Assembly (NCBI GenBank): GCA_036149055.1 | Contig: JAYZQJ010000128.1 | Location: 64,001-128,000, forward strand | Length of the DNA: 64,000 bases | Source of the DNA: Myxococcota bacterium | Lineage (GTDB): Bacteria > Myxococcota_A > Polyangia > Polyangiales > Sandaracinaceae | Reading direction: 5' to 3' | Shown: positions 55,307 to 64,000 of the stretch, in pieces | Layout of the letters: every line of letters begins with the position of its first letter | How positions within the stretch are numbered: the stretch's first letter is position 1 | The notes under the pieces: model-generated | What the model was told of the DNA's origin: nothing | What the model saw: only the letters and a program-made list of their open reading frames with translations | Databases searched by the model: none | Position numbers and translations under genes: made by a program

Positions 55307-58300
55307 TCAGGGCGTGCGGCTGACCCCGGCCTGGCGCCAGTCCGACTGCACGCCCGCGTTGCCGCTCCCGGCGAACGCCGCGCGCGTCGTGCTGGTGCTC
55401 GAGCTCACGCCCGCCATGTCGACCGGCGCCGGGGTGAAGCTCGCGCAGCTCGGCGGGCTCGTGGGCGCGACCCCGCCGGTGACCTCGACGTAGTCGACGT
55501 AGTTGGTGCAGCTCGCGTTGCAGGCTCCGGCGCAGGCGGCGACCCAGCCCTCCTCGTCGGCGTTGTGGCAGATGTTCGAGCCGAAGTACGACTCGTTCGC
55601 GCCGAGGCCGCTGTTGACGTCGAGCACCCGGAAGGTGCCGCCCGGCGGGACGATCGACGAGGGGAAGGTGTAGGTCAGCGCGCTTCCGTCGCAGCTGAGC
55701 CGGAAGCGGAGCGAGAGGGTGTTCACGTTCAGGTTGCAGTCACCGGCGTTGATCACCTCGATGTAGTCGGGCGAGCCGCCGAAGACCTCGTTGATCCGGA
55801 AGTTGTCCGGGCCGCAGGAGGCGCAGGTGCCGGCGACGCAGCTCGTGCCGGCGCAGTCGGTGCCGACGGTGCAGGCGTCGCCGTTCGGGCAGCGCGCGCA
55901 GGCCGTCGCGCCGCCGCAGTCCACGTCGGACTCGCCGCCGTTCCGGACTCCGTCGCTGCAGGTCGGCGCCTGACAGACGCCGCCGCTGCACACGCCGCTC
56001 GCGCAGTCGCCGGCCACCGAGCACGAGCCTCCGGCGGCGCAGCCGTCACAGGTCGGGCCGCCGCAGTCGAGGTCGGTCTCGGTTCCGTCCTGCACCCCGT
56101 TGTCGCAGGTGAGCGGCGTCGAGCGGCAGCAGCGGAAGCCGACGGTGGGCAGGCGGATGGTGTCGTCCGCGACGATGAAGTCGAAGTCGCAGCGGGTGCC
56201 GCCCGAGGTGTCGTTGTTGGAGCCGCCGCGGAGCGGGTTGATCCCCGGCTGGCGCGACGCCGTCCACTCCTCTGCGTTGCCGCTCATGTCGTAGACGCGG
56301 TCGCCGCCCGGCCAGCCCGCGTAGCACATCGGGAGCGACCCGGTGGCGAGCATGCCGTTCTGGTCGCCGGGCGCGCCGGGATCGAAGTCGTAGTTGACGT
56401 CGTTGCAGACGGTGGACTGGTAGGTCGCGCAGCTCGCCGCGTACGACCAGTCGCACATGCCGGTGCTGGACTCGCAGCCGGTCTGCCACTCCTGCTCGGT
56501 GCAGAGGCGCCCGCCCGCCGCCGCGCAGGCCGCCTCGGCCTCCGGGTAGGTCAGGTTGGTCCACGGGAGCCGGTTCGGCGCGGAGCAGGCGGTGTGACTC
56601 ATCGAGCCGCCCGAGAAGCTCGTCGCGTCGGGGCGCGAGGCCTCGTAGGCCATCATGTAGGTCGTGCCGAAGGCGCCGGTGACGGGGACCCAGGCCCCGA
56701 GCCCGCCCTCGTCGAGCGCGCCGTCGCAGTCGTCGTCGAGCCCGTTGCAGGTCTCGGTGCCGGGCGCGCCCGCGGGCGGCGCGTTACAGGCGGTGCCGGT
56801 GCCGGCCATGTTGCAGACCACCGTGCCGGTGCGGCGGCACTCGCCGATCCCGTTCGCGCAGGCGTTGCCCACCGTCGGGAACGCCTCGTCGACCGCGCCG
56901 TCGCAGTCGTTGTCGAGGGTGTCGCAGCTCGACTCCGGGGTCTCGTAGGTCGCCGGGTAGTTGCACTCCCAGCCGCTCGCGCCGCCGCAGGTCGCGCTGG
57001 TGCCCGCGCAGACGCCGTTGGCGTTGCAGAAGGTGGCCGGCGGGGTGAGCGACTCGTCGACCGCCATGTCGCAGTCGTCGTCCCGGCCGTTGCAGGCCTC
57101 GGCGCCGGAGAAGCTGCACATGTACTCGCAGCCGTTCATCGGGTTGCCGTCCGCGTCGACGAAGCCCGGGTCGCAGCCGAGGAACACGCAGCTCCCGCCG
57201 CTGCAGCCGGCGCTCGCGTTCGGGAAGCTGCACACGGTGCCGCACGACCCGCAGTTGTTCGGGTCGTTCATGAAGTCGAAGTCCTCGTCCGTCGCCGCGT
57301 CGCAGTCGTCGTCGACCATGTTGCAGCTCTCGGGCGAGGGGCCGGTGCCGCCGGTGCACTGCAGGGTGCCGCCGAGGCAGGTCCGGGTGCCCTGGGTGCA
57401 GGCGCCGGTCGCCGATCCGCAGCTCGCGCCGCCGCCGGGGTTGCCCTCGTCGATGCTCGAGTCGCAGTCGTCGTCGAGGCCGTTGCAGGTCTCGGCGCCC
57501 GGGCCGGTCGCGCCGGTGCAGACGAGGGTGCCGCCGGTGCAGACGCGCGTCCCGGCGCTGCACTGCCCGACGTCGCTGCCGCAGAGGCCGCCGCCGCCCG
57601 GGTTGCCCTCGTCGACCGAGCCGTCGCAGTCGTCGTCGGTGCTGTTGCACGTCTCGCTCGTCGGCCCGGTGCCGCCCGCGCAGCTGAGCGCGCCGCCGGA
57701 GCAGACCACGGTGCCGAAGGAGCAGGCGCCGGTGTCGATGCCGCAGCTCCCGCCGCCGCCCGGGTTGCCCTCGTCGATGGTGCCGTCGCAGTCGTTGTCG
57801 ACGCCGTCACAGACCTCCGAGGAGGGGCCGCTGCCGCCGGTGCACATCAGCGCGCCGCCGATGCAGGTCTGGGTGCCCGCGGTGCAGGCGCCGGTGGACG
57901 TGCCGCAGGTGGCGCCGCCTCCCGGGTTGCCCTCGTCGACGTTGCCGTCGCAGTCGTCGTCGGTGCTGTTGCAGCTCTCGGCCGCGGGGCTCGTGCCGCC
58001 CATGCAGGTGAGCGCGCCGCCGCTGCAGGTCGTCGTGCCCGGCGAGCAGGCGCCGACGCTCGAGCCGCAGCTCGCGCCGCCCTCCGGGTTGCCCTCGTCG
58101 GTCATCCCGTCGCAGTCGTCGTCGACCGAGTTGCAGAGCTCGGTCGAGGGCCCGCTGCCGCCCTGGCACTGCAGGCTGCCGGCGATGCAGCTCAGCGTGC
58201 CCGGCGAGCAGGACCCCGCCGAGGAGCCGCAGGTGGCGCCGCCGCCCGGGTTGCCCTCGTCGACGTTGCCGTCGCAGTCGTCGTCGAGGCCATTGCAGGT

Positions 58301-64000: not shown

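Follow-up and report, generated by a model that had tools for sequence, protein, structure and literature searches.

The window analyzed here is a stretch of 64,000 nucleotides from a Myxococcota bacterium of the Sandaracinaceae (assembly GCA_036149055.1, contig JAYZQJ010000128.1, positions 64,001 to 128,000; all coordinates below count from the window's first base). It ends within a minus-strand gene for a very long protein. A single open frame fills 55307–64000 and runs to a stop at 55307; its ATG lies 672 bases past the window's right end, so that the gene begins outside the window, and from there it encodes 3,121 residues, ~10% of them Cys. The N-terminus is a basic-hydrophobic, signal-like stretch of 23 residues, as read by eye. 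The single long frame, its coordinates, and its residues are as an initial annotation, made from the window's letters alone, had described them.

The product consists of two halves on either side of a central join. Half A has a von Willebrand factor A (VWA) head (residues 29–285, mostly outside the window; its end is at 63818–64000), a stalk of 20 acidic, Cys-rich repeat cores (PF11617) mostly 51–55 residues apart (stalk A, 60917–63820), a Cys-rich base block of tandem small β-hairpin modules (60185–60898), and an Asp-Ala/Gly-Gly spacer (60098–60184) modeled with a low predicted local distance difference test score (pLDDT). Half B follows the join with an Asp-Ala/Ser-Gly spacer, also of low pLDDT (59771–59878), a stalk of 18 cores in which 54-residue units lie between longer units of 77–79 residues (stalk B, 56705–59749), a head of the formylglycine-generating enzyme (FGE)-sulfatase type (56120–56704), and a variable tail, absent from most homologues, of short Cys-Gly repeats and a lamin-tail-like domain (55310–56110).

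PF00092 is found in 20 of 25 aligned members; the VWA head of this protein scores 18.9 bits, below the cut-off of 23.8, and reaches 0.92 to VWFA clusters in the ESM Atlas. The metal-ion-dependent adhesion site of VWA domains is made up of DxSxS, Thr, and Asp. These residues are seen in this protein, and the first part of the motif is lost in some members. The second head matches PF03781 at 33.5 bits (cut-off 23.3), its best solved relatives by profile being SUMF2 and PorK/GldK (formylglycine-generating enzymes that are catalytic have copper-binding catalytic cysteines); the lamin-tail match is below cut-off (19.3 bits versus 34.3). From these domains we infer that the halves may be adhesins. 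The initial annotation had drawn the layout as mirror-like. Its repeat counts, VWA and FGE domains, and both spacers stand, and its lamin-tail tip does not reach the threshold; the symmetry itself is even stronger than claimed, as arm lengths are locked across the family (see below). The repeats are predicted to fold as separate modules (pLDDT 90, predicted template modeling score [pTM] 0.50). Foldseek at E 0.001 gave no solved match for stalk or base, no NCBIfam family was found for either half, and the passages of PMC8286594 available to us do not mention this repeat.

Back-to-Back Sorting Signals

The join opens with a MYXO-CTERM tag (60082–59978) in which the Cys motif, hydrophobic helix (60031–59996), and Arg cluster (six Arg, 59995–59978) are all present. 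TIGR03901, which has a cut-off of 20, scores 27.1 bits on a 133-residue piece and 29.9 bits in the genome search. With 1,556 residues between it and the protein end, the tag is internal. No stop follows it: the chain continues through a basic loop and a second hydrophobic helix (59977–59909), which ends in the lipobox A-S-G, to a Cys (59908–59906, residue 1589) that would be the lipidated first residue of half B. An internal MYXO-CTERM leading straight into a lipoprotein signal had been claimed from the sequence, and the profile match and identical join residues confirm it.

The second signal, a basic stretch, a hydrophobic stretch, and the box A-S-G-C, shares with substrates of the signal peptidase II pathway both its stretches and its small-Gly-Cys box; here, in contrast, it stands inside the chain and is joined to the helix before it, at residue 1589 rather than at the N-terminus of a frame of its own, and has no conserved internal start. 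The textbook lipobox has Leu, Val, or Ile at −3. Ala departs from this, yet it occupies −3 in 32% of the genome's 329 predicted N-terminal lipoproteins, four of which have the A-S-G box itself. Among fused loci of the family (surveyed in the next section; L009 and L086 were left out of the lipobox comparison and of alignment A6), Gly is at −1 in 46 of 46, versus 68% of those 329 lipoproteins, and Gly-Cys is invariant in 44 of 44 aligned loci. The distance between the two Cys takes 20 different values, from 43 to 78 residues, in the 46 loci.

AlphaFold2 models the join as a two-helix hairpin. The hairpin topology proposed in the initial annotation, with its Arg run and both Cys motifs, is present, and the enzymes it calls for are encoded: MrtC (257.8 bits, cut-off 195), two LspA loci, and six Lgt loci, the last being candidates for the enzyme that lipidates the tag. 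Our guess that NF040592 is the MrtC family was wrong. At one site (G000 C206:28682–30855; L101, L102, L105) two lspA genes stand in tandem, followed by lgt.

This arrangement differs from what has been described for MYXO-CTERM and myxosortase (TraA, MrtX, MrtC). The gene shares with those systems the Cys motif, helix, Arg cluster, and N-terminal signal, as well as dozens of tags beside one MrtC in the genome (PMC11980579; bioRxiv 10.1101/2023.06.07.544157, in the passages available). Those passages define the tag as near the C-terminus (bioRxiv 10.1101/2023.06.07.544157) and report that MrtX cleavage needs the tag Cys (PMC11980579); here the tag is internal and its Arg cluster runs into a lipoprotein signal. 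An internal MYXO-CTERM is already in print once: the Discussion of PMC11980579 calls internal tags rare, names MXAN_5598 of Myxococcus xanthus, in which the tag is fused to an outer-membrane barrel with OmpA and no second signal is mentioned, proposes gene fusion and processing of the N-terminal part, and cites two papers for the processing of internal tags. MXAN_5598 is alike in its internal tag and its proposed fusion and processing. The present family has a lipoprotein as its partner instead, its join is found in many families, and its halves match in length.

Internal tags are not confined to this gene. The source genome has 74 TIGR03901 matches over cut-off; seven are internal, and 7/7 lead into a lipobox. 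They comprise three members of this family plus four proteins unrelated to it (five families), so that all five independent fusions have a lipoprotein partner; by comparison, lipoprotein-like products are encoded by six of 35 close downstream genes and four of ten tightly coupled ones. The four unrelated tag-to-lipobox hairpins (L071, L072, L073, and L074; G000 C160, C215, C14, and C125) belong to a phospholipase-C-like protein, an amidase with a propeller, an M23 peptidase with wall-binding repeats, and a lipoprotein-like first half with a propeller, the last combination being also fused, through a 70-residue loop, in another genome (G274, L174). These four match NF058595 "lipo-invert", a family on which we found no paper, at 17–22 bits (cut-off 37; best in the genome 22.1), a weak likeness of helix, basic stretch, and helix; this gene's join is absent from the genome's 82 NF058595 matches. 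In a search of 251 genomes of the phylum, 33 internal tags were found among the 69 top loci, each with a second export signal (23 lipobox and ten signal-peptidase-I-like, classed by eye), a count biased by a query that contained the second helix. In five loci with an internal tag (L151, L160, L162, L163, and L167) a signal-peptidase-I-like signal is followed by what seems to be an outer-membrane partner, which resembles the layout of MXAN_5598.

Fused and Split Forms of the Gene

We searched 41 genomes for the join and classed loci by their flanks alone, ignoring signals. The query was the fused join, which favors fused matches, and only better-ranked matches were fetched; L078 (= L001) was excluded from the censuses, and L009, from an unpublished genome (G023), was counted in the ribosome-site, tree, and flank censuses, with no claim depending on it. 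Of 89 loci examined, 79 had both flanks, and 50 of these were fused and 29 split or frameshifted. Fused loci occur in 29 of the 41 genomes, in nine families, and the full series of helix, Arg cluster, second helix, and Gly-Cys is kept in 49 of the 50, all except one garbled locus. The source genome itself has three fused copies and one split copy. Named relatives belong to the Sandaracinaceae, Kofleriaceae, and Polyangiaceae; all measured loci of the latter two are split, and L269, a short split pair, comes from a cultured Polyangium. In four loci (L081, L082, L083, and L250) the order is reversed, with a lipoprotein gene upstream of the tagged gene.

An assembly error joining two genes was considered, and a few loci in other genomes (L055, L084, and L086) are frameshifted near the join. 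Here, contigs from 4/4 runs, of four studies, span 59465–60556 or more with 0 gaps (the check used contigs rather than raw reads, and excluded the best DNA-matching run). With no stop or indel at the join, and the fusion shared with other genomes instead of being private to this assembly, the two checks that the initial annotation had suggested both come out in its favor, and we regard an assembly error as ruled out, with a negligible chance of being right. Of the substitutions listed, the four closest to the join (59888, 59945, 59984, and 60095) are all synonymous. Contigs from two RNA libraries also cover the join, which has no bearing on transcription. The runs that contain the sequence are mostly marine metagenomes.

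Nor does half B appear to be made separately. An in-frame GTG at 60004 would give it a 32-residue lipoprotein signal. The ribosome site there is only −1.5 kcal/mol, however, and the same-genus orthologue has no start codon at that position; we reject this start, which is very improbable. More generally, the best ribosome site is −6 kcal/mol or stronger in 19/19 split loci (−6.3 to −11.4 kcal/mol, each with a start codon) and in just three of 48 fused loci, eight of which, including the same-genus orthologue, lack any in-frame start. Since most fused loci have no ribosome site or start of their own for it, half B depends on the fusion in these loci. A rough count finds purifying selection on both halves (nonsynonymous to synonymous ratio, pN/pS, of 0.15–0.27 in two orthologue pairs), and conservation is as strong in half B as in half A.

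The fusion has changed state repeatedly. Fused and split loci interleave on a tree of the central region, with eight changes of which at least five are forced, and a tree of the heads has six changes, at least two of them forced; a single fused clade is rejected by the approximately unbiased test (p-AU 3e-45), and with it a single origin. It could quite well be that each fusion is a tolerated accident, a one-base loss of the stop/start overlap that leaves processing correct and is not selected, which would be compatible with the processing proposed below. The stop overlaps the start in the −1 frame in 18 of 19 split loci, and the interleaving and the coexistence of three fused copies with a split one in the source genome fit this. 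It accounts less readily for fused clades of 14 loci that persist over long branches, or for the lipoprotein partner common to the five independent fusions of the source genome.

Stalk Lengths and Head Types

The lengths of the two stalks are locked to each other. Across the 26 loci that have both heads (18 fused and eight split; loci without both were excluded), stalk A and stalk B correlate with r 0.998. Stalk A ranges over 199–1,041 residues, and stalk B is longer than it by 52 ± 13 residues. The difference in core count is exactly two in 21 of the 26, and four of the other five are cases of missed cores. The match persists after correction for shared ancestry, with independent contrasts giving r 0.998–0.999 on three trees and all 14–17 large contrasts being of one sign; 10,000 shuffles reach at most 0.70. 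The match belongs to the locus and not to the genome, as paralogues differ in length and yet each is matched (9/9 multi-locus genomes).

A second set, from named genomes, gives r 0.98 for 19 loci, although one of these is apparently already present in the first set; with looser anchors, the set grows to 29 loci (three without a detected lipobox excluded), with r 0.87 and rho 0.96. Its extremes are a locus of 27/25 cores and one of 24/22 cores whose repeat unit is shorter in stalk A and stalk B alike. In the outlier L234 (728/1,221), half A is split over two frames (6 + 10 cores versus 14). A second subfamily (for instance L076, L186, L196, L205, and L213) has the same base and join and is fused in 13 of 13 loci measured; there r is 0.98, over only two length classes. 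Its N-terminal head, which we take to be DUF4114-like, is accompanied by a BNR/propeller-like C-terminal head. Head types are thus paired as well: VWA goes with the FGE type, and another N-terminal head with a propeller-like tail. The length lock, which holds in fused and split loci alike, is new. Some A halves (L077, L189, L195, and others) have several hundred extra residues ahead of the VWA domain.

Proposed Processing into a Two-Legged Pair

Taken together, these observations suggest that the gene probably encodes a precursor that is cut into a length-matched, two-legged heterodimer of the outer surface. Sec would export half A until the tag helix stopped transfer; the Arg loop would stay in the cytoplasm and double as the basic n-region of the second signal, by which half B would be exported. 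The tag Cys would be lipidated and MrtC would cut after it, leaving half A anchored by its C-terminus, while Lgt would lipidate Cys1589 and LspA would cut before it, leaving half B anchored by its N-terminus, with a hairpin of ~55 residues discarded. By analogy with TraA and pullulanase, both halves could then reach the surface via type II secretion, to stand side by side on two equally tall legs, acidic and probably stiffened by calcium, so that the VWA and FGE-type heads would meet and form a single binding unit. The fusion would arise easily from overlapping stop and start codons and would give 1:1 synthesis; it is not required, because two-gene forms persist, one of them in the same genome. 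The interpretation first put forward in the initial annotation is supported, its hairpin and conserved fusion included, with the limits that the fusion turns out not to be required and that an internal MYXO-CTERM was already in print.

Such a pair would resemble the integrins, which consist of a β-propeller α chain and a β-I chain with transmembrane signaling tails. Alike are the VWA head, the Cys-rich legs in one membrane, and the heads meeting at the top; different are the lipid anchors in place of signaling helices, the FGE-type partner head, and the five-fold variation in leg length. No integrin-type domains were found in this protein and no homology beyond the VWA fold, and it is not a member of that family. 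As a precursor, it can be likened to Bradyrhizobium FbcH, for which our literature search found no paper: the cytochrome b-c1 precursor, with its internal export signal, is also a bacterial two-protein precursor, but it receives one signal peptidase I cut and feeds a respiratory complex, where two lipid-dependent cuts are proposed here. The myxobacterial VWA adhesin CglB (PMC9946355) is a further comparison for the VWA head. Our literature search on bacterial internal lipoboxes and polyproteins, on this repeat family, and on matched pairs, in which subscription journals were thinly covered, found PMC11980579 as the only relevant paper, and no tag-plus-lipobox precursor or matched stalks.

Several observations weigh against this proposal. 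We infer the cleavage, lipidation, and localization of the halves, and the literature search found no case of Lgt or LspA acting on an N-terminally tethered signal. The 29 of 79 loci that are split or frameshifted make 1:1 synthesis by fusion dispensable. Fused lipoboxes differ systematically from split ones: −2 is Ser or Gly in 34 of 46 fused loci and Ala in 13 of 19 split loci, Leu or Val is at −3 in only 13 of the 46, and the uncharged stretch is longer (median 17 versus 15, p 0.0004), a shift that could reflect drift towards a plain membrane helix. The fused lipobox is nonetheless within the range of this genome's predicted lipoproteins. A single-chain model of the join and two bases has confident modules and no sign of packing (pTM 0.49), and both stalks are strongly negative, at −4 to −13 per repeat.

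The lipobox shift, with the AlphaFold2 hairpin, would also fit a chain that is uncut or cut once, held by its membrane hairpin, with arms that match as the two legs of one molecule; passages of PMC11980579 moreover report some surface TraA without MrtX. We consider this unlikely. Gly-Cys is near-universal in fused loci and Gly at −1 is commoner there than in the genome's predicted lipoproteins, split homologues, which can only be two separate proteins, follow the length rule too, every internal tag in the phylum-wide search, biased as its query was, leads to a signal of a cleavable type, and arms of ~1,500 residues would be unlikely to fit in the periplasm.

Binding of the two heads is the part of the proposed heterodimer for which modeling offers weak support. 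A complex of heads plus necks scored 0.57, against 0.01 for the best of three controls, with runs agreeing in at least 34% of contacts and a partner pLDDT of at least 80. Among reference pairs, 116 of 157 solved and two of 215 mismatched ones reached the mark, and at 0.60 or under there were only 18 of the 157 solved pairs and both mismatches, so that without a prior the score falls in a band that is more often wrong than right, a further point against the proposal. The length lock had made pairing likely beforehand, and we therefore count the score as modest support.

In one locus, L231, a 3,922-residue frame, the two arms have a 51-residue repeat type in common, along with near-identical units (arm identity of 0.57 within the locus versus 0.39–0.49 to other loci). 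This too tells against the proposal, as it shows copying of repeats between arms, which might contribute to the length match. With the weak head score, it lends something to the improbable alternative that stalks match through such copying, or through the need to clear the same surface layer, and not through binding. In the other 11 loci compared, however, arms of the same locus resemble each other barely more than arms of different loci do. Nor does copying explain why the counts should be equal; the head types, too, are paired, and paralogues of one genome differ greatly in length while each is matched internally.

More tentatively, the family may represent a widespread, undescribed class of myxobacterial receptors: two-legged heterodimers with anchors at opposite ends, a height set by matched repeats (4 to 27 per leg), fixed pairs of heads, and often a single polyprotein with two lipid-dependent cuts. 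If so, tag-to-signal hairpins would be a general myxobacterial way of making polyproteins, Lgt/LspA and myxosortase would act in mid-chain, polyproteins would be a routine bacterial strategy, and many long myxobacterial genes would be mis-annotated as single proteins. The locked stalks would form a natural series of molecular rulers, and an integrin-like design would have been reached independently.

No conserved gene neighborhood was seen in eight loci. In the window, the neighbors are ordinary, as judged by eye, and include an aspartyl-tRNA-synthetase-like gene (49899–51752, plus strand) and a Ser/Thr-kinase-like gene (47734–48660, plus strand).
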